A program made the position numbers and the translations under genes. The notes beneath the pieces are model-generated. The model was not told the origin of the DNA and did no database searches. It saw only the letters and a list, made by a program, of their open reading frames with translations. Positions 5,393 through 28,812 of a DNA stretch of 59,262 nucleotides are shown piece after piece. This stretch comes from Candidatus Daviesbacteria bacterium GW2011_GWA1_41_61 (lineage in GTDB: Bacteria; Patescibacteriota; Microgenomatia; Daviesbacterales; UBA10151): the NCBI GenBank assembly GCA_000997385.1, contig LCBT01000005.1, positions 1-59,262 on the forward strand, given 5' to 3'. Each line of letters begins with the position of its first letter. Positions within the stretch are counted from its first letter, which is position 1.

Positions 5393-5467
5393 GCCGGGGT
5401 AACTCAGTGGTAGAGTAGCTGTTTTGTAAACAGCAAGTCGCGGGTTCGAATCCCGCCTCCGGCTCCA
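5393..5467 (+). tRNA. tRNA-Thr(TGT), integration site of element 1
   Basis: Cloverleaf; anticodon arm GCTGT-TTTGTAA-ACAGC, T arm GCGGG-TTCGAAT-CCCGC, 3' CCA. Confidence 0.95.
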
Positions 5468-7050
5468 AAGTGGATTGAAGGGTCGTATTCTGCCTGATTA
5501 GATTGATGTGACGGCCCTTTCTTTAGTCCGACCAAACCGTTTTCTTCAGAAAGCTCATTTTGCTTATTTCTAAGGAACATAAATACCGATTTAGCCTCTA
5601 GGTAAAGCTTTTTGTCTTTTAATTTCAAGTCCGACCCAAGTATTTGTAAAACCATCCTTTTAGTATAGTCGTCTCCGGTGTTAAATAATTCGAGAATATT
5701 CCCGGCAAACTCTAAGGTATTATCAATCATCTGCTCCCAGTAGGAAATTCTATCCGAATTAAGCTGCTCCTTAATATCTGCTTCTTCTTTTAGGATAGCC
5801 GCTTTTTTCTGTTTATACTCATCTTCAGAGTAGAGACCGTCAATTTTCATACTAAATAACTTTTCTTTACTACCATCAATTTCGTGTAATCTTTTAGTTA
5901 GAACTTCCTTATTTTTATGCTCAAATTCAAACTCATCTCGATTTCTTCTTTTGAGCACTTTCCTGACCCAATCAATAAACCTTGGGTTAAGTTCTAAATT
6001 ACTAATGAAAGTCCTAACCTGGCCTTCTAAATCATCAGCCGGTGTATAAGATCTTTGGGTACAGACACCTTTATTTTTCTTACATCTATACCAGAAATAC
6101 TCTCGTGACGTGCCATTTTTATATGTTTTAGTTTTTCTTTCCGAAGTAATAGTTGAGCTACATTCACCACATTTTATAAAGCCAGACAAAGGTAGTGTGC
6201 GTATTTCAGTTCTATCTATATACCGACCGCTAAACTTACCAGTAATGATTTTTTGAGCCTTATTGAATTCCTCCAAGGTGACCACTGGTTCTTGAATACC
6301 CTTGTGAACCTCACCTTGGAAATTAAAATATCCAGCATAAAATACGTTATGAAATAGACTAAATGAGGCAGTCCGAGATACTGGATTACCCCGCCTATCT
6401 CTTAAACCGAGCTTTGTAATTGCAGCTAAGGACTCATCAACAGTATATTGGCCAGTTAGTATCATCTGCCACCACCTCTTTACTAAATCAAACCTTTCTG
6501 GATCGTTAGTAACAGTTTTCTCTCCTTTAACCTCCCCAACATTGAGATAGCCAATTGGGGCTAGTCCTGGCTTGATTCCTTTAGCTACTTTGGATTCCAA
6601 GCCCCTTTTGACGTCTTTAGAGAGCTTTAGACTGAAGTCTGTGGACATACCAAACTCTATTAAGAGCATGAACCAGTTGGACAAATCATATTGAGTGTAG
6701 GGAGTAATAATCCTAAGACCTTTGTGCTGAACTAGGTCAATTATTTCGCTACCATCAATCATATTACGTGCGAGGCGGTTAGCATTCCAGCAAACGACAA
6801 CTTTAGCTTTACCAGCCTTAAGAAGATTGAGCATCCTGTAAAATTCAGTTCTAACTCCGGCTTTTCGACCGCTTTTTTCTTCTTTAAAGTGAGGTACTAT
6901 TAAATTAAGGCTATAATCCTTGATAAGTTTATTACATTCATTTACTTGGTCATTAAGGGATAGAACTTGACGCTTCTTATCTTCTTCGGATTTTCTACAG
7001 TAGGCTAGGGCAATATTACTCATATCATTTTCATTTTTATCTCTATTCAT
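5404..7050 (-). CDS. Large serine recombinase (integrase); C-terminus encoded antisense to tRNA-Thr
   Basis: YCRKS catalytic motif, RLARN, CGEC...YRC zinc ribbon, coiled coil. Confidence 0.93.
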   Translation of the reverse strand: MNRDKNENDMSNIALAYCRKSEEDKKRQVLSLNDQVNECNKLIKDYSLNLIVPHFKEEKSGRKAGVRTEFYRMLNLLKAGKAKVVVCWNANRLARNMIDGSEIIDLVQHKGLRIITPYTQYDLSNWFMLLIEFGMSTDFSLKLSKDVKRGLESKVAKGIKPGLAPIGYLNVGEVKGEKTVTNDPERFDLVKRWWQMILTGQYTVDESLAAITKLGLRDRRGNPVSRTASFSLFHNVFYAGYFNFQGEVHKGIQEPVVTLEEFNKAQKIITGKFSGRYIDRTEIRTLPLSGFIKCGECSSTITSERKTKTYKNGTSREYFWYRCKKNKGVCTQRSYTPADDLEGQVRTFISNLELNPRFIDWVRKVLKRRNRDEFEFEHKNKEVLTKRLHEIDGSKEKLFSMKIDGLYSEDEYKQKKAAILKEEADIKEQLNSDRISYWEQMIDNTLEFAGNILELFNTGDDYTKRMVLQILGSDLKLKDKKLYLEAKSVFMFLRNKQNELSEENGLVGLKKGPSHQSNQAEYDPSIHFGAGGGIRTRDLLFTKQLLYH

Positions 7051-12307: not shown

Positions 12308-12956
12308 ATAATGCAGGAGTAATTACAACAAATATATGGCCAGGTATTCCAAACACAGGTGTTTTATCATAGGTATACGAAACCTCAACATTTTTCCCAT
12401 TAATTATTTTTTGGTGTCGTGTTCCTGAGGTACTCTCAAATTCCAAAGATTGTTCTATAAACCAACTTGTAATATCTTTGTCTACAGTGTCCGTCAGTTG
12501 GAACATTTGCCGTAACGTATCATTATTTTTTTCTCCATCAGCATAAAGATCGCCAGTAAAACTGATTTGCGTTAAATTCTTCCCCGGCTGCCCTATTAGA
12601 TAAACTGTGACCGTATCAACCTCTCCTCTTTCTACATCCTGACTTTTATCTTCAGGATAATATTTATCAATATCCGAATTAAAAACTACACCTATATTTT
12701 GGGACTGTAACCTATCCTTTAAGGATTGCATTGTAATGCTTAAATCTAGAGTTTTAGTAGCGACTTGAGGTGAAGATAGAGGAGTCTGAGCCTGAGTATC
12801 GATCTGCTGTAAGATAGTTGAGCTTTGAGGTGAAGGTTCAGATCTCACTAAATAATATACTCCAATTATGATCGCGAATATAATAATGACTAATATAGGA
12901 ACAATTCTTTTTTGATCGCGAAACGTTTTTCTATTCATTTTATTTACTTCTTCCAT
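12282..12956 (-). CDS. Membrane-anchored hypothetical protein
   Basis: N-terminal TM helix followed by S/Q/P linker. Confidence 0.7.
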   Translation of the reverse strand: MEEVNKMNRKTFRDQKRIVPILVIIIFAIIIGVYYLVRSEPSPQSSTILQQIDTQAQTPLSSPQVATKTLDLSITMQSLKDRLQSQNIGVVFNSDIDKYYPEDKSQDVERGEVDTVTVYLIGQPGKNLTQISFTGDLYADGEKNNDTLRQMFQLTDTVDKDITSWFIEQSLEFESTSGTRHQKIINGKNVEVSYTYDKTPVFGIPGHIFVVITPALYELLPENE

Positions 12957-15380: not shown

Positions 15381-15930
15381 TAATAGCTGTGTCTGTTTTG
15401 ATATTTAATTGCATAGGTATTTGTTTCATGGCTTTTAGTGCCTGAATTGAGGTTAAATACTGCCTGTTTGCCCGATCCAGCTCCTTGCTCAAAAAGGCTA
15501 GGAATCTTATACCCATATCTGTAATTGAAGCCGGTGCTAAGTATCTATTAATCCGGCTTTGAATCTCTAAAGTTCGGATATAATTGACTGTGGCTAGTTC
15601 AGCCGTAGCTTTCTCGCTGGTAGTTTCACAAAGATACTCTTTTTGTAACTGCCTCATCATATCTACTCCAAAAGTTTTATAACTCTCTGATATAATTTTA
15701 GTCATCAGAATTCCGTTTTCGAACTCAAAAAGCGTTAATGCCTGAAATGCGTTATCTATATCGATTGTAGCTAATTTATTACTTTTATTATTTATAGACT
15801 CTTCATATACTTTTTGTAGAACAGTGTCTGGATCATTCCAAATTTTACATTTACTGAAAGCATCTCTAAGTTCCTCTGAAGTTTTTGTTTTAACAATCGT
15901 TTTACTGTTTATTTTAGGCTTAGTAGGCAT
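15340..15930 (-). CDS. Hypothetical element protein
   Basis: 196-aa ORF overlapping the next gene; its start overlaps the stop of the orphan integrase tail. Confidence 0.65.
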   Translation of the reverse strand: MPTKPKINSKTIVKTKTSEELRDAFSKCKIWNDPDTVLQKVYEESINNKSNKLATIDIDNAFQALTLFEFENGILMTKIISESYKTFGVDMMRQLQKEYLCETTSEKATAELATVNYIRTLEIQSRINRYLAPASITDMGIRFLAFLSKELDRANRQYLTSIQALKAMKQIPMQLNIKTDTAIIGQNQMVQANSHE

Positions 15931-16042
15931 AACCAGCTTCCTTTAAGCTAGTAACGTTTATGTGGTTTCTAAGAAGTTCTAATTGTGCTGCTAGAGTTTT
16001 TGCTTCCTCTGAGGTATCATTTAGAAGGTTTTGGAGTCCGAC
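15920..16042 (-). other. Displaced 3' end of the element 1 integrase gene (40 codons + stop)
   Basis: In frame with GGG ATT CGA core; reads VGLQNLLNDTSEEAKTLAAQLELLRNHINVTSLKEAGYAY*. Confidence 0.7.
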
Positions 16043-16062
16043 TCGAATCCCCTCTCCCGCTC
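16043..16062 (+). repeat. attR, tRNA 3'-end fragment
   Basis: TCGAATCCCCTCTCCCGCTC versus TCGAATCCCGCCTCCGGCTC at 5447-5466. Confidence 0.75.
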
Positions 16063-16080
16063 TGGTAAAATATTAAACAT

Positions 16081-16152
16081 GCCGAAGTAGCTCAGTGGCA
16101 GAGCACGTTCTTGGTAAGAACGGGGTCACGGGTCCGATCCCCGTCTTCGGCT
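16081..16152 (+). tRNA. tRNA-Thr(GGT)
   Basis: Acceptor GCCGAAG/CTTCGGC; anticodon arm CGTTC-TTGGTAA-GAACG. Confidence 0.93.
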
Positions 16153-16201
16153 CAGGTTAAAACCTTGCATCTCTTCCCCACCTAATATATAATCCCAAGG
16201 T

Positions 16202-16372
16202 ATGGCTAAAAAAGGAAACAGGCAAATATTTCATTTAGAGTGCTCTGCTTGCAAAAGCAGAAATTATGTAGTGCAAAAAAATGTTATTAATACTAAAGAT
16301 AAGTTAGCTTTTAAAAAATACTGTAAAAAGTGCCGAAAAATCACCCTCCACAACGAGACTAAGATTAAATAA
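16202..16372 (+). CDS. rpmG: 50S ribosomal protein L33 (zinc-binding type)
   Basis: Manual translation MAKKGNRQIFHLECSACKSRNY...KKYCKKCRKITLHNETKIK; below the ORF-track length cutoff. Confidence 0.95.
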   Translation: MAKKGNRQIFHLECSACKSRNYVVQKNVINTKDKLAFKKYCKKCRKITLHNETKIK

Positions 16373-16580
16373 TCACCTTCCTGGCTGGTCTAAACTGTTC
16401 CCAAAATCTACGATGTCCATACACGCCTGGTGTTCAAAACATCCATCCCCAAAGATTAAAAGGGCTATTGATTTATCTTCCCCAACTCTCGGGAGGAGAC
16501 CAAGTTGATCCACACTCATATCTTGGATATACAAGGCAGTTTTGAACAAGGGGTGTTTTTAGGTTATACTACACATACTT

Positions 16581-16654
16581 AGGGGCGTCGGTCAGTGGTA
16601 GGCCTGGAGTCTCCAAAACTCCTAACGAGGGTTCGATTCCTTCCGCCCCTGCCA
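16581..16654 (+). tRNA. tRNA-Trp(CCA), integration site of element 2
   Basis: Acceptor AGGGGCG/CGCCCCT; anticodon arm GGAGT-CTCCAAA-ACTCC; 3' GCCA. Confidence 0.95.
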
Positions 16655-18148
16655 ATTCTCACTTTCAGCATACTTGGCTACTATGCTGAATGGTAGTTTG
16701 AGGCTAAAATCAACCTTTTTATCCTTCAAAATAAGGTTCGAGACGACAAATCTCAGCAACTCCCTTTGTAACTCAGGTCTCGAACTGGCAAATAACTTCG
16801 GAGCCATATTGCAGAAGGTCAGAAATCCTTCTATTTCCTGCTTATATACCCTATCTGCAGTCTTGTGCTTCATTATTTCAGCATTTACGAGTTCGGTTTC
16901 CTTGTTGACCTCTGTTGATTTTGAATTGTAGGCTTCGTCTTTGATCTTTCCTTTGAGATATAAGTCCAACAGCTTTGAGGATTGCTCCTGTAGGTCTTTG
17001 TACTGACTGTTGAGAGCATCCAGCGAGTCTTGAAGGTATTCAGTTTCGTCTGCCAAGCTCACACTCATAATGTCTTTTATAGTTTTCAACTTTTTTAGAT
17101 CAAGCGAGGCTGCTTTGATTACCTTTGCTAATTGTTCTGTTATAACTTCCTCCCTCACATACTTCTGATGGCAGAATTGAGCCCCTCTGGGCTTGGTACA
17201 GTGATAATAAACATGACCCTTCTGCAATTCAGCAGTAACTCCGTTATGGCACTCACCACATTCCATAAGTCCAACAAATGAGAAATCGTGTTTATACCCT
17301 TTCTTCTTTTTCGGAGACAAGACCTCCTGCACTTTATCAAATAAGTCCTTTTCAATAATTGGTTCATGTTTTCCTGGTTTCACTTCGCCTTTCCATTCAA
17401 AAAATCCATAGTAAAAATGGGTGTGAAGAATCTTACCTATGGCTGACTTTCCAACTCGATTACCTTTTCGACTTCTGAAACCCTCATCAAAAAGCATCAA
17501 TCCGATTTTCCTTTCCGAGTATTCACCTGTAGCACAGAGCTCAAAGATTCTTTTGATAAAAGGTGCAACTACTGGATCAGGTACTGCTACATGGTCATCC
17601 AGCTTCGTTTTATAACCAATCGGAGGTATGTGGGGGTAGAAACCATCATCCACCAAAATATCATAAGCTTTTTTGACTTCATCAGAGAGATTGTTTAGAT
17701 AGAACCTGGCAAAACCATTTTGGATATCAAACTGTAGCTTTTGGAAACTCTTGGCGTTCTTGTTATAAACCAAAGATTCTTTGATGAAATGTATTTCTCT
17801 GCCTTCATTGTTCACCATATCCTCAATAATCACCCTATCTTTGAGATTGCCTCTCAAAAGTCTGTCCACTTTCTCACACAAGATTCCGAGGATGTTTTTG
17901 TTAGCCTGGATATAAGCCACCATTTCAGAAAACTTTTTTCGACCTTCTTTTTTTGCACTTTCATCAATATCAAACTCTTTGATTACTTCAAAATTATTTC
18001 GCTTGGCATAATCAAGGATTAGCTTCCTTTGGGCTTCAATGGAGACACCTTCTTCACGCTGGCGTTTACTGGAGACTCGATAATAAGCAACAAATTGATT
18101 TGCATTTTCCATATTCATCTTATCTGATTTTAGTAGATTAGTTGTCAT
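16622..18148 (-). CDS. Large serine recombinase; C-terminus encoded antisense to tRNA-Trp
   Basis: YYRVSS, VDRLLR, CGEC...YYHC zinc ribbon; ends WQGRKESNPR. Confidence 0.93.
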   Translation of the reverse strand: MTTNLLKSDKMNMENANQFVAYYRVSSKRQREEGVSIEAQRKLILDYAKRNNFEVIKEFDIDESAKKEGRKKFSEMVAYIQANKNILGILCEKVDRLLRGNLKDRVIIEDMVNNEGREIHFIKESLVYNKNAKSFQKLQFDIQNGFARFYLNNLSDEVKKAYDILVDDGFYPHIPPIGYKTKLDDHVAVPDPVVAPFIKRIFELCATGEYSERKIGLMLFDEGFRSRKGNRVGKSAIGKILHTHFYYGFFEWKGEVKPGKHEPIIEKDLFDKVQEVLSPKKKKGYKHDFSFVGLMECGECHNGVTAELQKGHVYYHCTKPRGAQFCHQKYVREEVITEQLAKVIKAASLDLKKLKTIKDIMSVSLADETEYLQDSLDALNSQYKDLQEQSSKLLDLYLKGKIKDEAYNSKSTEVNKETELVNAEIMKHKTADRVYKQEIEGFLTFCNMAPKLFASSRPELQRELLRFVVSNLILKDKKVDFSLKLPFSIVAKYAESENWQGRKESNPR

Positions 18149-18151
18149 AGT

Positions 18152-18691
18152 TCAAGGCGACTTCTTTATATCTCGAAACAAATCTTTTCTCATTGCTTTC
18201 CATGCATCAGACTTGACTAAATCACCATACTTTTTCCCTATCTCTTGGAGAATGTGCATCCAATAATTCGAATGCATCTCCTCATCCTTGAATACTTCAA
18301 AACGATCAAGATTCAGAGCTCCTTTTGCTTCCCTGTCGAGCTCTGCTATCTGTTCCTTGATTTTTTGTGTGCTTTCAAGCAGTTTGAAAGCTGAATCAGG
18401 ATCAAACTTCTCGGCTTCCACACCAAAAATCTGTCCAAACATATCGTTATAAAAAGTAATTGCGGTATCAGCTCGAATGATGATATAGCCTGAATACAGC
18501 ATTAGTTTTCGGAGGAATAAAGAAATAAGCTTATCAACTTCTTTCTTTGTCTCATTTGGCAGTTGCCTCCTCATCTCTTCAACCAAATCGAAATTACCTT
18601 GAGAAAACGCTTCTACAGCAGCCCTGAAAGCTTCATCAGCAGTCATATTTGCGAATGGTTCATTTAGATTCATTTTTGATTTTGTATGCAT
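18152..18691 (-). CDS. Hypothetical helical protein
   Basis: 179-aa ORF in operon with the recombinase. Confidence 0.6.
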   Translation of the reverse strand: MHTKSKMNLNEPFANMTADEAFRAAVEAFSQGNFDLVEEMRRQLPNETKKEVDKLISLFLRKLMLYSGYIIIRADTAITFYNDMFGQIFGVEAEKFDPDSAFKLLESTQKIKEQIAELDREAKGALNLDRFEVFKDEEMHSNYWMHILQEIGKKYGDLVKSDAWKAMRKDLFRDIKKSP

Positions 18692-19031
18692 ATTCCAATA
18701 CCTCCAATCTTTTTGCTAAATCACTCTGCTCAATAGTTTTGAGTGCGATACCCGATAAGTAACCTATTGCAGTTGCCAGTTTAGTGCTGGTTTTATTTCT
18801 TCGTAGGTCGTTTATGGTCTGTTCTATCAGTTTCAATACATCTTGCGTATTTGAGATTGCTATTTCATCATCCCTTCCATAGCTTCGTTTGGGGCTTTTA
18901 CCACCATCATGTACTGCTTGGGTTCGTTTCTCTCGCATCTTTTCAGAATGCCAGAAACAAAAGCTATCAGCTTGGATCGCCTTGGCTTTGCACCGCTTTT
19001 TATCTGTTTTTATAAAGTTGCATTGATTCAT
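18660..19031 (-). CDS. C3H zinc-knuckle protein (HGGxSTG-like)
   Basis: QCNFIKTDKKRCKAKA...FCFWH...GG. Confidence 0.6.
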   Translation of the reverse strand: MNQCNFIKTDKKRCKAKAIQADSFCFWHSEKMREKRTQAVHDGGKSPKRSYGRDDEIAISNTQDVLKLIEQTINDLRRNKTSTKLATAIGYLSGIALKTIEQSDLAKRLEVLEYAYKIKNESK

Positions 19032-19290
19032 AGTTACATAAGCTAATGGGTGTACCTCCTAATAACTGCTTGTTGAGATAGCCCACCCTTCCTAAAGGTT
19101 TCATCCGCACATGTTTCCGTTTTCTCTCGGTATGCGTTAGCTCATTACCTGTTCCAAACTGCTCCTTTCGGTCAGAAGGGAGGCTCTCGTAATGCGTCAA
19201 GAATAACCCCCACATTTTTCTGTGTCTGCTTTATAGAGACCATTGTTTCCATAGCTCAATGGTAAGCAGTACACCCAAACAGTTAGTTAT

Positions 19291-19548
19291 TTAGCCTCGC
19301 TCCTGTTTATTCCCACGAGTTTTCAATAATTGAGATATTCTATCTTTATAAGCCAATCGTTTTTGGAATGCCTCTTTGGTGTAAATAGCCACCTCCCAAT
19401 CACCAAGTAATTGACTAAATTGCTTTATAAGTACAAAGCCATTGATTTCTTTTTCCTGGTACTGATTTTTTGGGTCAAAAAAGGACAGGAGAAATAATCG
19501 TCTAATCTTATTTAGCCAATTTTGGCTGTGAGTATGTTTCATTTTCAT
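19291..19548 (-). CDS. Hypothetical protein
   Basis: 85-aa ORF in same-strand operon. Confidence 0.55.
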   Translation of the reverse strand: MKMKHTHSQNWLNKIRRLFLLSFFDPKNQYQEKEINGFVLIKQFSQLLGDWEVAIYTKEAFQKRLAYKDRISQLLKTRGNKQERG

Positions 19549-19560
19549 ATCAATTTTTTG

Positions 19561-19791
19561 TTATTTGCTGGCAAATATCCTGTCTTTCAAGGTACGAATT
19601 GCATCTGCATATTCCCTGGCTTTGACAGTCAAAGTATTAGACCAGTAGTCATTAGATATTTTGCGACAGGCTGTCTCACTTTCAAATACAAACCAATAGA
19701 AACCAGAATCAGCTTCCAATCCAGCAATTGTGAGATTCGCAGCTACCAAAGCAGATGCTTCGTAAATGTCTTTGGTTTTATACCTTTCCAT
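19561..19791 (-). CDS. DUF5659-like small protein
   Basis: YKTKDIYEASAL...FVF...YW...LKDRIF; paralog of 9530-9781. Confidence 0.7.
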   Translation of the reverse strand: MERYKTKDIYEASALVAANLTIAGLEADSGFYWFVFESETACRKISNDYWSNTLTVKAREYADAIRTLKDRIFASK

Positions 19792-19960
19792 AAGTCACAG
19801 CCTCCTTTTTCATTTTGTTGAGAACTTTTAGAAATCCAGACAAGTTGAAGTATGCTTCAAAAGCTTGAGAGTCAGTCAAAGGCTGCTTCGAAAGAAGTTC
19901 GAGTTCTTTTTGGAGATTTTCCTTACATCTTTGGCTCAATTTCCGATCCATATGAGCCAA
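19778..19960 (-). CDS. Small hypothetical protein
   Basis: LTDSQAFEAYFNLSGFLKVL resembles LSDEVARDQGSRLIQLFEL of 7047-7325. Confidence 0.55.
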   Translation of the reverse strand: MAHMDRKLSQRCKENLQKELELLSKQPLTDSQAFEAYFNLSGFLKVLNKMKKEAVTYGKV

Positions 19961-20000
19961 GTGTAGAAAAATAGGGGTTGAGAAACGAAGGAGAGAAAAA

Positions 20001-20618
20001 CTACCCTTTTTTATCCCTGGACATGTGGAGTTTCTTTTTCACTAACCTACATCGCTTACTGATTTCAGTCTCATCAAATGGTCTGTTTCCGTAAATCGTT
20101 TCTCCGATTTCTCGCATACTTTTTCCCTGGTTATAAAGTTCTATCATCCGAATATCTGTGTCAGAGATTTCAATGGGCTCAAAATCTTTCAACCATCTGG
20201 ACTGCAATTCTTTTATCAGATTCCAATCTGCTCTTTCTAAATCTTTGGCAGTAGTTTTTCTAAAAATCTGAATAAAAAGCTCCCATTTTTGTTTTTCGAA
20301 GTTGTATGAAAGTATTGGTTGTAAGGAAGAAATCGCTGGCAATTGCAATTTACCTGATTTCAGAAGATTGCGAATTGGCTCCTCCCAGTTCGCGGGCAAA
20401 TTACATTCATTTACAATTCGCTTCGGTTCATGAATAAGTAATCTTTCTTTGACACCAAAATTACGAATCACCATTTTCTTATCTTTAGTTACAATCACTT
20501 CTGATTCATATTTCTGAATCTTTTTCAGAACCTTTTTACACTCTGATAATAATCTCTCGCTGTGCTCAAGAATAAAATGGGTTTTTATTTCGGTAACTGA
20601 ACTTTTTGCATTTTTCAT
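20001..20618 (-). CDS. Hypothetical regulator with C-terminal HTH
   Basis: MIELYNQGKSMREIGETI...ISKR. Confidence 0.6.
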   Translation of the reverse strand: MKNAKSSVTEIKTHFILEHSERLLSECKKVLKKIQKYESEVIVTKDKKMVIRNFGVKERLLIHEPKRIVNECNLPANWEEPIRNLLKSGKLQLPAISSLQPILSYNFEKQKWELFIQIFRKTTAKDLERADWNLIKELQSRWLKDFEPIEISDTDIRMIELYNQGKSMREIGETIYGNRPFDETEISKRCRLVKKKLHMSRDKKG

Positions 20619-20720
20619 ATCAATCTACATCTGTGCTCAATTGTACCAAAAAGAAGCCATAAACCTATAACTTTGGTCTGGTAATTGAGTTATAATAAGG
20701 CTGAAATTGAGATGTAAATT

Positions 20721-22343
20721 ATGACGAACAACACAGATAAACAAAAGGACAATACTACTTCCTCATCTCCTGTTATTACCGAAACTAACCTTGCACAGTT
20801 AGCCAGAGGATTGCTTCTGATGAATATCCAAAAGGAAATGGATGAACCAGGATACACTCCAATTGATAGAATCACGAAAAACCGCAAAGTTGTACAAAGA
20901 CGACAAGAGTACTGTAGCGATATTGAGCGGGTAATTAGCGAGGCGAAGCTTACAATCCATCTCCAATTAGAAGTTCAGAATGAAGTAAAAGTTGGTGAAA
21001 AGTCATACCAACCAGAGGAAATAATAAGTTACTATAATGGGATTTTCCTTGACCAAGTTCATCAGTTGAAAGATAAGCTTTTCAGAATGATTGCACTCCT
21101 GCTTTTAGTACCTGAAACAGCACAAGACAATCAAAAGAAAGACCCTAAAAAGATCGAATATCAGCCATTTCTAACTAAAAACGAAGTGAAACTGAAAGAG
21201 ATTGGTATTTACGACTTACTATCTCAATGGGGCTCTGGCAATCTTGCAAAGGCATTAGATAAGAGAACCTATCATCATCATTTTGTAAGTACATTACGAC
21301 TAAATAGTGACTTCCAAAACATAAAAATGTCCAGGATGATGCTCAACCCACTAACTTCAAATCAGTTGAGCGAATATGGTAAGAAGAGAATGGCGGAGAT
21401 TGGTGAAGAATCTTATAGAAAATGGAGAAAAGAACTCGTAGATAAGCAGCAAGAAATAATCGGTGAAATAGAACAAAACATTGAAGAGATTTCAGAAAAA
21501 CTTATCACCCATTTCAAAGTCCCTGCAACTCCTGTTGAATCTGCACCCATAATCAGTAAGTACATGGAGTTTTTGGCCTCTATGGACATACATAATGAAG
21601 CAAGTATAACCAAGATTCCTACTGACCTGAAACCATTGATAGACGGATTCCTCGAAATTGCTGAAAAAGAAATTGGTGGCACACTTCATCTTCCGTATTC
21701 AGTTTATCTTGTTGGAAGCTGTGCACGAGGAGAGTATATTCCTGGCTGCTCTGACATAAACCTTTATTTTATTTTCGATGCTGATACAAATACGAATCTT
21801 TCAAAGAGCAATCCACTCGTAAATCTTGTTTTTCTATCAAAGAAACAATATCAGTCTAACGCCCACAAAAAGGATCGTTTCATTTGTTGGTCTGATGGTG
21901 TCCTACTCCATGGCAATGGTTTCAAAATGGGAAAGAAGGACTTTCCTAAACCAGGATCACTGCTGTGCCTACTCCTGAACAAGGGGTTTATCGAAAAGCT
22001 TGAGCAGATCAGGAAAGAAGTTGCAGCATTGAAGAATCAAGACCCTGATACTTTGAGGCAGTACAGTGTAAAAATGGTCAAAATTATGCTGGATTTTGAT
22101 TTTGGGGTTGCAATGTCTAATAAACCTTTCTACACCGCAAGCAGGAAAGGTAAAATCGCCTACACCAAGGAATCATGGCCGAATGAACGCAGAACAAACA
22201 CTTTTGAGCAGATTTACTATAAAGGAATCATTCGGCAAGAGGATTTTCCAATGGTAATTGACACCTTCCTTGAAAATGCGAAGAAAAACTATCAGAAACT
22301 ACTTGATGTTGAGGCAGATATTATCAAAAATCCAGCTCGATAA
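20721..22343 (+). CDS. Putative HEPN (Cthe_2314-like) plus nucleotidyltransferase fusion protein
   Basis: RX4H motif RTYHHH; VYLVGSCARGEYIPGCSDIN Pol-beta NTase motif. Confidence 0.6.
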   Translation: MTNNTDKQKDNTTSSSPVITETNLAQLARGLLLMNIQKEMDEPGYTPIDRITKNRKVVQRRQEYCSDIERVISEAKLTIHLQLEVQNEVKVGEKSYQPEEIISYYNGIFLDQVHQLKDKLFRMIALLLLVPETAQDNQKKDPKKIEYQPFLTKNEVKLKEIGIYDLLSQWGSGNLAKALDKRTYHHHFVSTLRLNSDFQNIKMSRMMLNPLTSNQLSEYGKKRMAEIGEESYRKWRKELVDKQQEIIGEIEQNIEEISEKLITHFKVPATPVESAPIISKYMEFLASMDIHNEASITKIPTDLKPLIDGFLEIAEKEIGGTLHLPYSVYLVGSCARGEYIPGCSDINLYFIFDADTNTNLSKSNPLVNLVFLSKKQYQSNAHKKDRFICWSDGVLLHGNGFKMGKKDFPKPGSLLCLLLNKGFIEKLEQIRKEVAALKNQDPDTLRQYSVKMVKIMLDFDFGVAMSNKPFYTASRKGKIAYTKESWPNERRTNTFEQIYYKGIIRQEDFPMVIDTFLENAKKNYQKLLDVEADIIKNPAR

Positions 22344-22345
22344 TC

Positions 22346-22861
22346 TTACTTTTTGACTCTGTAGTGTAATTCAACAATTCCATCGTCAATTTTCTCAACT
22401 TTCATCAATTCCAGCTTGAGCTCGAAATCAGAAAGACTGAATACTGGGATTCCTTCCCCTAAAATTGAGGGGTTCACATCAAATATAACCTCGTTTATCA
22501 AACCTCTTTTTGCAAACTCGCTGTTCAGGGTTGACCCGCCTGTAATAATTGCCTCGTTGAAACCTTCTGATTCGAGAGTTTCAAGAGCTTGTTCTGGTGA
22601 GTTTGCCAATGTAAAACCATTTTTGAGATCAAGATTAGAGGTTGAAACTATAATCTTCTTCACACCTTCAAGTTCAGTGAGATAATCTCCTTCCCACTTG
22701 ATAACTGCCTCATAGGTCTTTCTACCCCAAATAAAACAACCAATCCTTTTAGCCAAACTTACGAATTGTATCCAGTTTGTATGTGACAAGAAATCTTCAC
22801 TACCAGATTTAGAAGCAATAATTCCATTCGCTGAAACTGCCATAGTTAGAATAATTTTCAT
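22346..22861 (-). CDS. Dihydrofolate reductase / RibD C-terminal family protein
   Basis: AVSANGIIA, GRKTYE, GGSTL, PSILGEGIPVF. Confidence 0.88.
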   Translation of the reverse strand: MKIILTMAVSANGIIASKSGSEDFLSHTNWIQFVSLAKRIGCFIWGRKTYEAVIKWEGDYLTELEGVKKIIVSTSNLDLKNGFTLANSPEQALETLESEGFNEAIITGGSTLNSEFAKRGLINEVIFDVNPSILGEGIPVFSLSDFELKLELMKVEKIDDGIVELHYRVKK

Positions 22862-23187
22862 AATTCTTCTTCTGAAATAAGAGGGTAAATGTCAAAAGCC
22901 ACTTCTTCATAAGGATGGACTTTCCTAATTGCTGCGATAACTGCCTTTGCTTTTTTTTGATCGCTAACACATTCAATCCGTTCTTCTTGTACTTGTTCAA
23001 ACTTACCAATTTCGCCAATAGCTGGATGAGCACCTTCCATTGGCTTATATCTGCCTATTCCATCAACTGAATAGCTACAGTGACTGTAAAGCCCAATTTT
23101 CCCTGCCCCTGCGCCTCCTATTGCCTGACGAACTATATCAGTATGAGTTTTAGGTACAAAAACAACAATTTTTACAGTTTTATTCAT
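22858..23187 (-). CDS. Stand-alone NIF3/YqfO PII-like domain protein
   Basis: KIVVFVP, GAGKIGLYSHCS, HPYEEVAFDIYP. Confidence 0.85.
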   Translation of the reverse strand: MNKTVKIVVFVPKTHTDIVRQAIGGAGAGKIGLYSHCSYSVDGIGRYKPMEGAHPAIGEIGKFEQVQEERIECVSDQKKAKAVIAAIRKVHPYEEVAFDIYPLISEEEL

Positions 23188-23567
23188 TTTTCCTCTATCA
23201 CTTGCTTCAATTTCTCTAAAATATCGGTAGTGAATGGCTCCTGTAATTCACCATTTTCCATCCACTCGTAATACTCAAAGTTCGTAGAATTATCGCTAAT
23301 TGGAGTCAGTGTATATTTGACATGATAATTTCCGTCTTTTTGAACCATTGTAAAACTATTATTTTTCAATTCAGTAAGTGTATATTCATTCCAAGTGCCA
23401 TTTTGACTCTGATTCCTGTAGATTGATCCGACTTTTACAGGCCATTCACTCGTTTCTTCTTTCACTAATGAACCAATCCATAAAGGTGTATTTTTCGGAT
23501 TTAGGACAAAGGAGATTATTTCACTTACTGGCTTGTCAATCTGGATCGTCAATCGCTTATCTTTCAT
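23184..23567 (-). CDS. SRPBCC/polyketide cyclase-like protein
   Basis: IQIDKPVSEI...NPKNTPLW; C-terminal helix LEKLKQVIE. Confidence 0.7.
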   Translation of the reverse strand: MKDKRLTIQIDKPVSEIISFVLNPKNTPLWIGSLVKEETSEWPVKVGSIYRNQSQNGTWNEYTLTELKNNSFTMVQKDGNYHVKYTLTPISDNSTNFEYYEWMENGELQEPFTTDILEKLKQVIEEK

Positions 23568-23636
23568 AATTCATATTGTATCAAAACCTAAAGACTTGAG
23601 CGAGACTTTATTGACAATAATTGATACAATCAAATC

Positions 23637-23978
23637 ATGAGTGCAACACCATTTTCTCCCAGTGTAACTAAAGGCAATTTTGTCTTTACATCTGGCCAAA
23701 TCCATCTAAAAGAAGGAAAACTTCTTGAGGGGACAATCGAAGAAAAGACACATCAAGTAATGAAGAACCTTCAGGGAATACTTGAAAAGGCTGGCGTGAC
23801 TTTCAACGATGTTGTCAAAACGACCATTTACACCACAGACTTATCATTATATGGAAAAGTAAATGAGGTTTATTCGACATACTTTACCGACTCTTTTCCT
23901 GCAAGAGAAATGGTTTGCGTAAAAGAACTTCCTCTTGGAGCTGTATTAGAGATCAGCATGGTCGCCTTCAAATCCTAA
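23637..23978 (+). CDS. RidA/YjgF family protein
   Basis: FTSGQI, DVVKTTIY, NEVY, FPAR, LPLGAVLEI. Confidence 0.9.
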   Translation: MSATPFSPSVTKGNFVFTSGQIHLKEGKLLEGTIEEKTHQVMKNLQGILEKAGVTFNDVVKTTIYTTDLSLYGKVNEVYSTYFTDSFPAREMVCVKELPLGAVLEISMVAFKS

Positions 23979-24074
23979 AAGCTAACGCTTGTGGAGGATT
24001 GAGAAATTGTTGAAGTCTCTGAAGATCAAACTGGCTGATTTTGTGCCAAATTGTTCGAAGGTCATGCACTAATG
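23968..24074 (-). other. Displaced 3' end of the element 2 integrase gene (35 codons + stop)
   Basis: In frame with the att core (AAT TGG CAG G); reads ALVHDLRTIWHKISQFDLQRLQQFLNPPQALAFRI*. Confidence 0.75.
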
Positions 24075-24082
24075 CCTGCCAA

Positions 24083-24793
24083 TTAAAAAAGCCCGCCGGG
24101 ACATGATGAATGAAACTGGATAAAAAGGTTTCTCACTTCACCTCCCAAATCCGAGGCTCTAATCTTTTGTACCAGGCGCTGAAATATTTTCTTATCCGCC
24201 TGGGTATCACCCAAGTAAACCAAAGACCTTTCCTGATGTAATTTTTCAAACAAACGCATACGTTTCCCTAGCTTGAGTCTTACCAACTCAGTCCACTTAA
24301 AAAGAGGAAAAATAACTGCTTCGAGTCCCTGGGGATAAAGAATGTCGCCCCGAAAGATCCCCACTTCCTGAAGCTGATTTAAGAGCAAAGTCTCTCTTTG
24401 ATCTTCAGGAAGAGACAGGGAGTTTACCACCCTACCCATTACTCCCCCTGGCATGTTCAAAAACTGAGCATAAGCACCACATAAAGGTCTTGAAGAATAG
24501 ATGAAAACATTGTTTAATTCATCCTCATGCAGTCTTTCCAAAAATGCGTTCTCCTGCCCGGACAACTCGCCTACCGACAATCCAATCCTGAAACCTCGAG
24601 GTTTCAGGATTGGCCCATCAAGGTCAACAATAATGTCGCGTGGTCCGGGTATTTGGTCAATTGCCGCCTCTGAATTTTTCAAGGCGCCGGAATGAGGAAG
24701 CTGGGTGAGGTCAAGGCGCCCGCAGGAGACAGTTCTCCCTTGACTGGTTTGAATATCCCAAGGAATAATTTCGATGCAGCGATTATACACCAC
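24083..24793 (-). CDS. HAD-like hypothetical protein
   Basis: IVDLDGPI and VYLGDT motifs. Confidence 0.5.
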   Translation of the reverse strand: MVYNRCIEIIPWDIQTSQGRTVSCGRLDLTQLPHSGALKNSEAAIDQIPGPRDIIVDLDGPILKPRGFRIGLSVGELSGQENAFLERLHEDELNNVFIYSSRPLCGAYAQFLNMPGGVMGRVVNSLSLPEDQRETLLLNQLQEVGIFRGDILYPQGLEAVIFPLFKWTELVRLKLGKRMRLFEKLHQERSLVYLGDTQADKKIFQRLVQKIRASDLGGEVRNLFIQFHSSCPGGLF

Positions 24794-24837
24794 TGAAGCT
24801 ATACAAGCAAAAACTTTCGGAAACCAAGAAATGTAGA

Positions 24838-25554
24838 CTAAAAATTTACCTTAATCCTGGCATTTTGAATGCCTGCCTCATAACCGGTGTTAGTTTTTAA
24901 CTGAAGTTTATAAATTTTTTTACCTGAAGTTAAGATAAAACCTTGAGAATTTACCCAGGAATAACTTTCAGTAGTTACTGAGACCTCAGATGGCAGCAGA
25001 GCCAACTTATCATCGCTGTTATAGATCCTGGCATAAGCTTTACCATTTCCCTGAAAAACCCGCAATGACACCTCAAGCTGCATGCTTTTGTATCCCGGAT
25101 AATCAGCCGGGTCTAAAGTAATCTGCAGAGCATCGACAGCAGTCCAATCTAAAGCACTGGAGGCCCCTCCTGTACCTAAAGGGATATACAAAGGGGCCTT
25201 AGTAGTGGAAACAGTATCTTTAGGTTCTTTTAAATCATTGACCTGAAGCTGTAAATCAGCCACCGTTCTCTCTAAACTCCTCACCTGGGTCTGCAAAGTT
25301 TTCAAACTAAGATCTTGACTGTCAATTTTAGAAGGAGTGGGGCTAGGTTTTTCCTTCCCGGAAGAAGAAGCAGGGCTGATAACTGCTGGCAGATTCTCGG
25401 GGGTCGGAGAAGCCTGAGTTAACTGAAAGGTCTCAGTTAAAGTAGTCAAAGGATCAATTGGGGAACTTTTATCTGCAACTCTATAAATTCTGACATAAGC
25501 TAACACTCCCATCATCAAAGAGATCAGCAGTACCAAAGGCAGAAACTTCACCAT
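24838..25554 (-). CDS. Membrane-anchored hypothetical protein
   Basis: N-terminal TM, P/S/T linker, coiled coil, beta-rich C-terminus. Confidence 0.7.
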   Translation of the reverse strand: MVKFLPLVLLISLMMGVLAYVRIYRVADKSSPIDPLTTLTETFQLTQASPTPENLPAVISPASSSGKEKPSPTPSKIDSQDLSLKTLQTQVRSLERTVADLQLQVNDLKEPKDTVSTTKAPLYIPLGTGGASSALDWTAVDALQITLDPADYPGYKSMQLEVSLRVFQGNGKAYARIYNSDDKLALLPSEVSVTTESYSWVNSQGFILTSGKKIYKLQLKTNTGYEAGIQNARIKVNF

Positions 25555-25623
25555 AGATTTATCATAACATGTTCATTCTAATTTATTATTAAATTCTAAG
25601 TTTTGATATAATTTCTTGATTAT

Positions 25624-26517
25624 ATGAAAATAATAGTACACAAAGAACAAGAAATCGGGATTCAAGACAGCCTAAACCTAGAACAGCAAAACGGCTCTCG
25701 AAGAAGGGTAAATTATAGCCTTGTTAATGCGGTGGTTAACAGTCGGGTTCTCGAGTTAAGACGATTAGATCAAGATTTAACAGTTACTACCCTCTCTGAA
25801 GAGGCCCAAGCAGCAATCCGAGAACATCGGCAAGAGGTCTTAGGAGATATTATTGACTGCAATATGGGGCTTATTGTTTCTATTGCTAAACAATATGCGG
25901 AAAAAGTAGAGTTGGAAGATCTAAAAGGTGTCGGTATTGTTACCCTGTTAGAAGCAATACCCCATTTTAAAATAGGAAGGGCTAAATTCTCCACCTTTGT
26001 CTTTCCCAGGATAAGAAAGGCTATCCATTGTTACGCCATAGAACAAAGATCTCCCATTAAAGAGACGGATTACCATTACAGAAAAGTCAAAAAAGCAGGA
26101 GGGTCTTCTGCAGCTCAAACTTATACAATCTTCAGTCTTTCTAAAGGCCTTAACCAAACTAATGCCGAAAGTGACCCGATTGAGAATATTCTGCCCAATG
26201 ATTTTATCGGAGATGTCGAACAAGAGGCTTTGTCTCCTCTCACTTTAATAGACTTGATGAATCTTGCTCAAGAAGCCGGGTTAGATTTCCGGCAGCAACG
26301 AATATTATGGCTGAGGGCAGTAATGTCTTCTGATGTATACAGAAGTTTCCCCCTAAGCCTAAGGGATATTGGTAAACTTTTGGTCCCTCCTGTTACTGGC
26401 GCAAGGGTAAAACAAATTGAAGATAAGATAAAAAGTAAGCTTTGCACACCAGCCTTTTTGCCCCGTTTGAGACAAATCCTTTCTCAAGGCACCCGGATCG
26501 ACGACTACTTAGCTTAA
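25624..26517 (+). CDS. Divergent sigma-70 family RNA polymerase sigma factor
   Basis: Region 2 NMGLIVSIAKQY...KFSTF; region 4 SLRDIG...VTGARVKQIE. Confidence 0.8.
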   Translation: MKIIVHKEQEIGIQDSLNLEQQNGSRRRVNYSLVNAVVNSRVLELRRLDQDLTVTTLSEEAQAAIREHRQEVLGDIIDCNMGLIVSIAKQYAEKVELEDLKGVGIVTLLEAIPHFKIGRAKFSTFVFPRIRKAIHCYAIEQRSPIKETDYHYRKVKKAGGSSAAQTYTIFSLSKGLNQTNAESDPIENILPNDFIGDVEQEALSPLTLIDLMNLAQEAGLDFRQQRILWLRAVMSSDVYRSFPLSLRDIGKLLVPPVTGARVKQIEDKIKSKLCTPAFLPRLRQILSQGTRIDDYLA

Positions 26518-26551
26518 AAACTTAACTTTATGTTATGCTAAATATTAGTTT

Positions 26552-27835
26552 ATGGCTGATCAGGCCTCTCATCATAAACATGACCATGCTACCCTAACTT
26601 TCCCGGAAGGTTTTTTATGGGGAACTGCTACCTCTGCCCATCAGGTAGAGGGAGGAAACAGCAATAACGATTGGTGGCAGTGGGAACAAACAAGACCACA
26701 GCAGTTTTGGTCAGGGCCCTCTTGTGACCATTACCATAAATATGAAGAGGACTTCGATTTAGCTAAAAACTTAGGCCACAACGCTCACAGGCTATCTATT
26801 GAATGGTCCAGGATTGAACCCGAAGAGGGTAAGTTTGATTTAAGGGAGATTGAACATTACCAGAATGTTTTAAAAGCTTTAAAGGACAGGGGGCTGAAGG
26901 TGATGTTAACCCTGCACCATTTTACTAACCCTGCCTGGTTTGCCCAAAAAGGGGGCTGGGAGAACAGAAAATCAGCTTTTTATTTTGAAAGGTTTGTCAA
27001 AACCATTGTCCCAGAAATTAAAGATTATGTTGATTTTTGGATCACCATTAATGAACCGGGGGTTTTGGTCTGGGGAAGCTATATTGCCGCCATTTGGCCT
27101 CCCCAAAAAAAAAGTAGGTGGAAAGCTTTAAAAGCGATGTGGAATATCATCCGAGCCCATAAAAAGGCTTACAAAGCCATCCATAAGTTAGTTCCTAAAA
27201 CAGAAGTTGGCCTAGCCCAAAATGTCCAGTCTTACACAGCCTATCATAAACATTCTTTAATAGAACAATTTGGGGTAATCTTTTCTGATTTGGCTTCCAA
27301 CCATATCTTTTATTTTTTAACCAAAGGTTATCATGACTTTTATGGTTTAAATTATTACTTCCATTATCGTTTAAAAGAGCATGGCTTAGGAGTAGAGATT
27401 ACTGATGTGACCCACTTTTCCAAAGATATTTCTGACATGGGGTGGGAAATCTTTCCCGAGGGTATTTTTAATGTCCTAACTGACCTTTCCAACCACATAC
27501 CCATTTATCTCACTGAGTGCGGGATAGCCACCAGTAATGATGACCGGAGGATCAGGTTTTTAATGCAGTATCTACAGGAAGTTTACAGGGCTATCCAGGC
27601 TGGAGTAAATGTTAAGGGTTTTTTCTACTGGAGCCTGCTGGATAACTTTGAATGGGCTGATGGATATGAACCTAAGTTTGGCCTGATTGAAGTAGATTTT
27701 AAAACCCAAAAAAGGACTATTAAACCCTCAAGTTTACTTTATCAAGATATCATCAAACACAATGGCATCAGACATAAGCTAATGAAATTCCTAGGCCACA
27801 GGGTTTCTGTCAAAGAGGTTTTAGAAGAAAAATAG
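26552..27835 (+). CDS. Glycoside hydrolase family 1 (beta-glucosidase)
   Basis: FLWGTATSAHQVEG, TINEP, LTECG, DNFEW. Confidence 0.95.
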   Translation: MADQASHHKHDHATLTFPEGFLWGTATSAHQVEGGNSNNDWWQWEQTRPQQFWSGPSCDHYHKYEEDFDLAKNLGHNAHRLSIEWSRIEPEEGKFDLREIEHYQNVLKALKDRGLKVMLTLHHFTNPAWFAQKGGWENRKSAFYFERFVKTIVPEIKDYVDFWITINEPGVLVWGSYIAAIWPPQKKSRWKALKAMWNIIRAHKKAYKAIHKLVPKTEVGLAQNVQSYTAYHKHSLIEQFGVIFSDLASNHIFYFLTKGYHDFYGLNYYFHYRLKEHGLGVEITDVTHFSKDISDMGWEIFPEGIFNVLTDLSNHIPIYLTECGIATSNDDRRIRFLMQYLQEVYRAIQAGVNVKGFFYWSLLDNFEWADGYEPKFGLIEVDFKTQKRTIKPSSLLYQDIIKHNGIRHKLMKFLGHRVSVKEVLEEK

Positions 27836-27906
27836 CACATATAAAGAGTTGATTAATATCCTCTTCTGTCTTGTCTTAAAGCTTCATTTTGTTATATGGT
27901 TAAAGT

Positions 27907-28812
27907 ATGAGTTTTCTGCCCATAGCAGTTTTAGCCTATGCTTTAAGTGGAGGAGCTATTATCATTGATAAGATCCTCCTTAAAACCTCTCTTCCCAACC
28001 CCCTAACTTATGCTTTCTATATAAGTTTATTGCAGTTGTTAGTCCTACTGCTTATTCCCTTTGGTTTTAGCCTAAATTTGGGAACACCTGCCTATTTAGC
28101 TATCATTTCAGGTATATTTTATGTCTTTGCCCTTTATACCTTTTTTGCCAGCTTAAAGAAAAATGAGGCTTCCGTTGTAGGACCTTTGGTAGGCATGCTC
28201 AATCCCTTTTTTACCATCCTTTTGGGAAGCTTATTTTTAAGCCAAACACTTACCCCTATCCAAAATTTTGCAGTCTTCATCTTAATCTTGGGAGCTTTAA
28301 TATTAACCTTAAATATCTGGAGGAACAAACTTCAGTTCAACCGGAGGATCCTTTGGATCATCACTTCAGGTCTGCTGTTTGCTTTATCTTACCTACTTTT
28401 AAGGGAGGCCTTTTTTACCCTCTCTTTTTTAGACGGATTGATTGTCAGCCGGACTTCCTCAGGATTGTTTGTTTTAACGTTTTTAATTTTCCCCCATATA
28501 AAAAAACAAATTTTCACCTCCAACAAATCCCAACAGACCGTCAGTTCAAAATCTACGCTTATTTTACTGGCGTCAGGACAAACCATGGGGGCTCTCTCAG
28601 GATTACTGATTGCCTATGGTGTAAAACTGGCCAATCCGGCTCTGGTGAATTCTCTTTTCGGGATTCAATATTTGGTCATTTTAACAACTGCCATCTTTTT
28701 GGCTAAAAATAGGCCTCAGCTTCTGGATGAAACACTGAGTAAGGCTGTTATTACCCAAAAAGTGGTTGGGGCAGCAGTCTTAAGTTTGGGACTTTATCTT
28801 TTAGCTGTATGA
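27907..28812 (+). CDS. EamA/DMT family transporter
   Basis: About ten TM helices in two repeats. Confidence 0.8.
   Translation: MSFLPIAVLAYALSGGAIIIDKILLKTSLPNPLTYAFYISLLQLLVLLLIPFGFSLNLGTPAYLAIISGIFYVFALYTFFASLKKNEASVVGPLVGMLNPFFTILLGSLFLSQTLTPIQNFAVFILILGALILTLNIWRNKLQFNRRILWIITSGLLFALSYLLLREAFFTLSFLDGLIVSRTSSGLFVLTFLIFPHIKKQIFTSNKSQQTVSSKSTLILLASGQTMGALSGLLIAYGVKLANPALVNSLFGIQYLVILTTAIFLAKNRPQLLDETLSKAVITQKVVGAAVLSLGLYLLAV

Follow-up and report, generated by a model that had tools for sequence, protein, structure and literature searches.

Why does a recombinase gene end inside a tRNA gene, and where would the displaced end of its protein be encoded? The question is raised by a large serine recombinase (LSR) gene of Candidatus Daviesbacteria bacterium GW2011_GWA1_41_61, located on a stretch of 59,262 nucleotides (contig LCBT01000005.1, positions 1 to 59,262; hereafter the window). 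The source genome comprises 1.06 Mb in 7 contigs. We favour, with a probability of roughly 70%, that positions 16648-24084 represent a 7.4-kb integrative element which was put into the extreme 3' end of a tRNA-Trp gene by its own LSR. The attP site would lie within the LSR gene, integration would swap the tail of the protein, and the T-loop sequence of the tRNA gene would be read by the zinc-ribbon domain (ZD) of the enzyme. The following features carry this reading:

16581..16654, plus strand: tRNA-Trp(CCA) with encoded CCA (ARAGORN and the sequence); putative integration target and attB left arm
16622..18148, minus strand: LSR gene in its presumed integrated state, 508 amino acids (aa); the last eight codons, GRKESNPR, are antisense tRNA-Trp
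16648..16657: putative attL core CCTGCCAATT; crossover most likely within 16648-16652, where the cores of five elements overlap
24075..24084: putative attR core, second copy of CCTGCCAATT
23968..24074, minus strand: putative displaced 3' end of the recombinase gene, 35 codons and a stop
16631..16636, plus strand: GTTCGA of the tRNA T-loop, read as (E)SN on the recombinase strand; proposed ZD-binding motif of the B arm
24053..24058, plus strand: GTTCGA of the P arm, proposed to mimic the T-loop; translated as (L)RT in the tail

The C-terminus of the 508-aa recombinase reads ...ENWQGRKESNPR*. Its open reading frame (ORF) overlaps the tRNA-Trp gene in antisense by 33 nt, and the last 7 nt of the tRNA gene lie inside the shared core. 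A sequence-only reading of this DNA had described how the recombinase crosses a 10-bp core into antisense tRNA-Trp, and we find exactly this in the sequence. CCTGCCAATT occurs twice in the window, both times on the plus strand. Read on the minus strand from 24084 to 23968, the second copy and what follows give NWQALVHDLRTIWHKISQFDLQRLQQFLNPPQALAFRI*, in the same frame as the recombinase residues NWQ (residues 498-500). The in-silico join at the repeat, proposed in the same reading, thus yields an open, in-frame tail of 35 codons at 23968-24074, and the joined gene would encode a longer protein of 500 + 35 aa. The two ends, as had also been claimed, bound a stretch of 7.4 kb with an att core in the recombinase ORF. 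The displaced piece overlaps the stop region of a RidA family gene by 11 nt.

By itself, the 10-mer repeat only weakly exceeds chance: shuffled sequences contained 0.24 matches on average, and two or more in 2 of 100 shuffles. The pair becomes significant because the tail behind the second copy is homologous to the tail of another element (BLASTP E 2e-8, see below) and ranks third with a tail profile. This 13-residue profile was built from 13 natural intact tails, with the window left out. Among the 90,289 six-frame residues of the window, the tail took third place (profile score 7.0, i-E 0.93). Such a match is weak alone, but it stands directly after the only second core copy and in frame.

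The sequence-only reading had named homologs that end at WQ without any tail as the outcome that would speak against it. We analysed protein tails in the best 120 of 838 homologs, which bear Patescibacteria names, and genomic loci for the best 80 of 502 relatives. Conserved motif tails were found. In seven of the 120 homologs the tail is intact and follows the pattern [VILF]-R-[TS]-aromatic, among them P0035 (...NWQPYMESIRTFYAQN) and P0048 (...NWQAWMEDIRTWYAQI), both with just 13 residues beyond NWQ. The majority (71 of 120) end in antisense T-arm peptides of the [DE]SN type, such as -GRKESNP- or -RDSNL-, another nine stop 0-2 residues past W-x, and the remaining 33 have other endings. At the DNA level, the ORF ends inside an antisense tRNA gene in 57 of the 80 loci, and 11 amino-acid types are represented (Gln 20, Ser 13, Trp 8, Gly 6, Asp 3, Asn 2; Pro, His, Glu, Arg and Leu 1 each). 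Of the other loci, 4 run off the contig, 8 have a motif tail without a tRNA (L069 being doubtful) and 11 end otherwise. The intact tails of L064 (...IWCSLVHDVRTFY) and L062 (...IWGLVDEVRTFYM) closely resemble the WQALVHDLRTIW of the window. P0046, with a tRNA-derived tail, and P0048, with an intact one, are 79% identical up to NWQ and then diverge; therefore, both states occur naturally in one lineage. At E <= 1e-60, 52 of the 401 genomes of the class contain the family, and most matches are free of internal stops.

Two further endings were observed. In L069 the recombinase frame passes through a tRNA-like stretch (MRDSNPRYRL) that was not called by ARAGORN, and FSVRTWNF follows further on, possibly as the tail of a neighbouring element. 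In the sister group P0054-P0058, proteins end in ...CPALLRG*, and P0058 continues with ...CPALLRLVDEFRTLNW...; apparently, there is a second type of junction here (L-L-R), with a similar pair of intact and truncated forms.

If integration displaces the tail, it should be found at the far ends of related elements. Alignable cores comprise 5-10 nt and cover the antisense CCA, the discriminator and the last acceptor bases. A search for exact repeats of at least 8 nt between the junction and the upstream flank of related loci revealed a motif-bearing tail in one locus only, L015. Since cores are often 5-7 nt long, this search was replaced by the peptide profile together with a 7-mer search. The profile was applied to 36 integrated loci with upstream flanks of at least 1.5 kb each (264,770 residues). 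Far-end tails were detected in L007 (score 21.5, QAWMESIRTWYAQI, 9.7 kb from the junction), L006 (16.9), L037 (16.3), L074 (11.8) and L015 (9.2), with weaker matches in L019 and L016.

A further case, L130, does not depend on the peptide profile. It targets tRNA-Pro, and the end of its recombinase reads like that of L008. Within the 17.5 kb upstream there are only two copies of the 7-mer TGGTCGG, each followed in frame by WSALLDDIRNLWPTLNSFDFS..., and the in-frame tail after the core is WSALLDDIRNLW... In BLASTP, this tail matches that of the window over 31 residues (E 2e-8). In the first 21 codons of the two L130 tail copies, all 6 differences are synonymous; the next 11 codons hold 2 synonymous and 4 non-synonymous ones. 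In L131, a 9-mer core match had no tail behind it. Because the L130 tail is homologous and its changes in the first 21 codons are synonymous only, the piece at 24074-23968 is, as far as sequence comparison goes, the true, selected C-terminus of the recombinase lineage, and the two cores are the putative borders of the element.

The two L130 copies (12496-12606 and 15505-15615) lie 3 kb apart, upstream of one recombinase at the tRNA-Pro gene, which resembles a tandem array or what is left of an earlier element. In arrays of this kind, excision might not be needed for the downstream recombinase gene to recover a complete tail, along the lines of a suggestion in the available text of McMurdie et al. 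(PMC3146451).

What else might the tail encode? We analysed the codons of the 15 tails for which DNA was at hand. The codon before R is NTT in 13 of them; R itself is encoded by CGA (10) or AGA (5) and never by the other four Arg codons, and T by ACN. In the bodies of the same genes, CGA accounts for 87 and AGA for 88 of 524 Arg codons, and NTT for 595 of 1,697 V/I/L/F codons. This bias makes the DNA TT[C/A]GAAC, which is the T-loop sequence. Part of the tail conservation is thus probably due to a constraint at the DNA level, with the R-T codons serving as a T-loop-like binding motif in the attP arm.

The position of the hexamer is constant as well. Counted from the TGG that is antisense to CCA, it starts at +18 in the tRNA arm and at +23 in the P arm in each of the five elements whose core is defined, three at Trp (the one in the window, L007 and L015), one at Gln (L016) and one at Gly (L074). 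In the window it spans +18..+23 in the tRNA arm and +23..+28 in the P arm, 5 bp further out. The cores of the five elements overlap at +2..+6 (window 16648-16652), so that the distance between hexamer and crossover is about 14-19 bp in attB and 19-24 bp in attP, both within published ranges. For the LI/A118 integrase, the ZD motif is located at positions 16-24 of the attP half-sites and 5 bp nearer the centre in attB (Rutherford et al. 2013, PMC3783163). In these left arms, the +18/+23 offset matches the published attP/attB shift of the ZD motif. A displacement of 5 bp changes the reading frame by two, and one hexamer thus encodes E-S-N in the integrated state and x-R-T in the circular one. 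Judged by its codons, the tail seems to be constrained both as DNA and as protein.

The recombinase itself has the features of an LSR: a resolvase-type catalytic domain with the conserved serine (PF00239, Resolvase, E 6e-20, residues 20-161), a recombinase domain (PF07508, Recombinase, E 3.5e-14) and a zinc ribbon with four Cys (PF13408, Zn_ribbon_recom, E 3.3e-7). R24, S26 and S27 are invariant across 44 sequences, as are the zinc-ribbon residues C297, C300, C317 and C326. Its domains are those of serine recombinases only, a tyrosine recombinase catalytic domain being absent. The best NCBIfam match, CcrB (E 1e-24), is far below the cut-off, a sequence search of the PDB returned only a catalytic domain (3guv), and no Pfam family spans the tail. 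In the AlphaFold2 model of homolog P0035 (59% identical), the zinc-ribbon domain contains a long coiled-coil with helices 337-384 and 390-441. Foldseek linked this model, that is, the homolog's and not that of the window protein, with a probability of 1.00 to 9y66, 9dxh, 9iu2, 9tep and 4kis, and it matches the SPbeta, Bxb1, PhiC31 and LI integrase structures. The window protein is, on the strength of its domains and the homolog's model, an LSR with all canonical domains and a predicted fold like that of the SPbeta, Bxb1, PhiC31 and LI integrases.

We propose the following course of events. Recombination would take place within the 10-bp identity, most likely at CCTGC (tRNA positions about 70-74), and would rebuild the tRNA end. 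Integration would shift the last 35 codons 7.4 kb away, to the other end of the element, and the protein of the integrated gene would stop after eight junk codons in the antisense tRNA. A free circular copy would make an enzyme of 500 + 35 aa with the conserved helix motif W-x-x-L-V-x-D-[VILF]-R-T-aromatic-aromatic. The ZD may read the T-loop sequence in attB and its mimic in attP, and the tail-less prophage form would stay an excision enzyme. Because the tail appears to be under purifying selection at the protein level, it most likely serves the free, integration-competent form. Acting on displaced tails, this selection also speaks for an importance of the full-length form and for elements that cycle through a circular state.

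This proposal can be taken a step further. The tail could be a built-in state sensor: the circular element would encode a full-length enzyme that is integration-proficient or stabilised, the prophage a tail-less, excision-biased one, and direction would be switched without a directionality factor, with protein motif and att site locked together in evolution. We regard this extension as quite doubtful. If true, the lock between motif and att site (R-T codons equal to the T-loop mimic of attP) would account for the movement of the clade from one tRNA target to another. Our analysis supports the earlier interpretation in its structural half; the other half, a possible control of directionality or stability by the isoforms, stays a conjecture.

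Several observations weigh against the proposed swap at a T-loop-guided att site. Far-end tails were recognised in only about 7 of the 36 loci with at least 1.5 kb of upstream flank. In the P0035 model, tail residues 487-499 form a low-confidence terminal helix after the last zinc-ribbon-associated helix (predicted local distance difference test score, pLDDT, <50). Four of the five elements with the constant offset were picked via a peptide motif that already holds the R-T codons, so that only the offset, not the presence of the hexamer, is independent. The hexamer is not universal, since the L130 tail has AGG-AAC (R-N) instead. Dyad symmetry was absent from the in-silico attP and attB sites (best 9 and 10 of 22 positions, not above chance), and no T-loop-like motif was evident in the P' or B' arms. 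The ORF of 236 aa that flanks the element was found in 1 of 61 genomes, the window's own, with no homolog in the 60 others, and no empty site was found in relatives. Finally, neither the joint of a circle (24084->16648) nor that of an empty site (16647->24085) was present in the contigs of 4 groundwater runs.

The last point comes from a set of 17 sequencing runs from 8 studies, all in the form of assembled contigs, of which 4 groundwater runs were compared with the window. Contigs that bridge attL or attR show the integrated state only: X1 (16087-24611), X3 (16059-19301 and 19272-24611) and X5 (16100-17118 and 23910-24611). Contigs drop rare variants, and excision is neither supported nor refuted by them. 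Loose contig ends at 16656/16657 were rejected as a signal of excision; with 4 mismatches in the tRNA they stem from other organisms. A metagenome scan with a single protein gave 3 loci and a viral scan 11 loci (the best 36% identical and cut by the contig end), in neither case with a circular form. A metagenome contig that is 100% identical (L085) and an X7 contig (record 25) both end at 16709, 52 nt before the core. This could reflect an assembly branch near the junction or low coverage, and L085 and X7 may share one data set.

Could the arrangement be real and the exchange of the C-terminus nevertheless neutral? The overlap would then be a product of compactness, the tail would be conserved as attP-arm DNA and through shared ancestry, and both forms would work alike. 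The R-T codons TT-[C/A]GA-AC, far above background and at the position of the ZD motif, fit this explanation, as does the low model confidence of the tail. Integrated genes also stay open in 57 of 80 loci, most class-wide matches lack internal stops, and the 13 residues past NWQ in P0035 and P0048 imply that most of the window's 35-aa tail is dispensable in these proteins. A neutral exchange does not account, however, for synonymous variation with residues kept at the L, V, D/E and aromatic positions, nor for the 6 synonymous versus 0 non-synonymous changes in 21 codons of the two L130 tails. Moreover, L130 keeps the peptide motif D-I-R-N-L-W though its DNA hexamer has changed, and the tails of the window and L130 align over 31 residues, beyond any plausible 9-bp binding motif. 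We therefore hold neutrality to be unlikely.

It is less likely still that integration is suicidal, with the loss of the tail inactivating the recombinase as in SSV and the window element being a locked relic that is unable to excise. Integrases of the SSV family do disrupt their own gene on integration, according to the available text of PMC7253208, the contigs of the 4 runs show the integrated state only, and a directionality factor was not recognised in the element. But just 35 of 535 codons are displaced, and the catalytic, recombinase, zinc-ribbon and coiled-coil parts all remain. The family is, in addition, integrated at 11 tRNA types with intact ORFs and occurs in 52 of 401 class genomes, and purifying selection on displaced tails would imply repeated passage through a circle. 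That the second CCTGCCAATT and the open frame behind it are mere chance, with the element ending elsewhere or not existing, is hardly credible: two or more 10-mer matches did arise in 2 of 100 shuffles, an open run of 35 codons is not rare in DNA of 38% GC and the genes at 22346-23978 resemble ordinary metabolic genes, but the tail has homologs at the far ends of other elements (E 2e-8), fits the family motif in frame directly behind the core and bears the T-loop mimic at the predicted 5-bp offset.

How does the C-terminal swap at a tRNA gene, as proposed here, relate to known systems? The closest is DsiB of the Dehalococcoides genomic islands, where the 3' end of the serine recombinase gene always overlaps attL (McMurdie et al. 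2011, BMC Genomics 12:287, PMC3146451). According to the available text, the authors speculated that dsiB is fully functional only on the circular element, the overlapping part being divergent. Like the window gene, dsiB encodes a CcrB-like LSR that adjoins attL on the reverse strand and has its stop codon within the target RNA gene (PMC3146451). The target there is tmRNA (ssrA), whereas it is tRNA-Trp here and comprises 11 tRNA types in relatives. DsiB is also accompanied by a small recombinase, DsiA, and a RecF/ParB/Mom module (together a six-gene integration module); in the ORFs next to the window recombinase, Pfam, PHROG and NCBIfam searches gave no matches to counterparts of DsiA, RecF, ParB or Mom. 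Neither a conserved tail of the circular form nor a T-loop mimic is described in the available text of that paper, to which we compared by description rather than by sequence. The sequence-only reading had implied that the arrangement is new for serine recombinases; this novelty is reduced by the overlap already noted for DsiB (PMC3146451).

The tyrosine recombinase precedents invoked in that reading are in print: the integrases of Mx8 and SSV extend across attP, as stated in the available text of PMC4383910. The likeness lies in the att core within the integrase ORF, through which integration alters the protein. In contrast, catalysis depends on tyrosine there and on serine here, so the window enzyme works like that type without being a member of it. 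For Mx8, the attP site was reportedly placed inside the IntP ORF by Tojo et al. in 1996. The SSV gene falls into two large pieces, while the exchange in the window gene is confined to the final 35 codons.

With the Listeria A118/LI integrase, the window protein shares the domain set, the predicted fold and, as far as the left arms go, a motif common to attB and attP that, in the available text of Rutherford et al. (NAR 41:8341, PMC3783163), lies 5 bp nearer the centre in attB. In the LI system, however, the att sites lie outside the integrase gene and attB is not a tRNA gene; here, the presumed ZD motif would be the universal T-loop sequence and would also be coding. The element further resembles islands at tRNA genes (Islander, PMC4383910; tycheposons, bioRxiv 10.1101/2020.12.28.424599), for which the available texts describe an intact tRNA gene with an integrase gene beside it and, at the far border, a short duplicate of the tRNA 3' end. 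The difference is that a whole LSR clade sits at tRNA 3' ends here, with only 5-10 bp of identity. Serine-family integrases were not known to target tRNA genes, as far as the available text of the Islander paper goes (Hudson et al. 2015, PMC4383910). In a literature search that covered openly accessible articles without supplements, we found no account of an LSR clade that sits at tRNA genes and has attP inside the 3' end of its own gene, except for the note on DsiB and ssrA. Within the same scope, the breadth of the clade, the 11 tRNA types, the tail of the circular form and the T-loop mimic with its 5-bp offset were not found described.

The LSR clade occurs in Patescibacteria, Omnitrophota, Zixibacteria and others, and at least 11 kinds of tRNA gene are targeted by it at their 3' ends. 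Serine integrases are prized for genome engineering because their direction is controlled, and a natural family whose C-terminus is rewritten by integration would offer an uncomplicated route, open to experiment, for linking direction or stability with whether the element is integrated or free. The T-loop mimic 5 bp further out is a sequence-level prediction of how such enzymes may recognise tRNA genes, with one hexamer that is a proposed binding site and is also translated in two frames. As regards annotation, the many 'recombinase' ORFs with -ESNP- or -DSNL- peptides at their ends would be isoforms of the integrated state rather than proteins with true C-termini. For the field of site-specific recombination, the speculation on DsiB from 2011 would thereby become a sharply testable model.

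The remainder of the element and its border comprise the following genes:

18152..20618, minus strand: six small ORFs (179, 123, 85, 76, 60 and 205 aa), co-oriented with the recombinase
20721..22343, plus strand: ORF of 540 aa, only a short match to NTP_transf_2 (nucleotidyltransferase)
22346-22861, minus strand: RibD_C-type reductase, cargo-like
22858-23187, minus strand: ORF of 109 aa, cargo-like
23184-23567, minus strand: SRPBCC/Polyketide_cyc2 protein, cargo-like
23637-23978, plus strand: RidA family protein, cargo-like
24083-24793, minus strand: flanking ORF of 236 aa, whose stop codon overlaps the last 2 nt of the attR core

The six small ORFs are candidate regulatory or directionality genes. 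Their sole family match is a sub-threshold hit to DUF5763 in the 123-aa ORF; PHROGs and NCBIfam gave none, and a directionality factor was not recognised among them or elsewhere in the element. The 236-aa flanking ORF had no family match; in an empty site, it would adjoin the end of the tRNA-Trp gene. About 16 kb (16654-33014) separate tRNA-Trp from nusG and the genes for L11 and L1 (33014-34981), and the same stretch beyond the element holds a sigma-70-like gene, GH1 and GH42-like genes, an EamA transporter and PBP1. A 20-mer search for a second tRNA-Trp fragment in the window, allowing up to 3 mismatches, returned only the tRNA gene itself and one site at 43659 (3 mismatches), which we took as chance.

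The genome encodes two more LSRs. The second, a distant relative (5404-7050, minus strand, 548 aa, 27% identical), reads in antisense through the whole of tRNA-Thr(TGT) (window 5393-7050). A fragment resembling a tRNA 3' end, TCGAATCCC with 8 further matching bases, is located at 16043-16062 (region 16027-16077), and the frame stays open from there for about 40 codons (GIRVGLQNLL...AGYAY*), without the R-T motif. LSR and fragment presumably correspond to an element of about 10.6 kb that the sequence-only reading had listed as its first. The third LSR, L003 (G000:C3:255622-260127), is a 529-aa ORF that ends in antisense tRNA-Pro, next to tRNA-Leu; therefore, all three LSR genes of this 1.06-Mb genome abut tRNA 3' ends.

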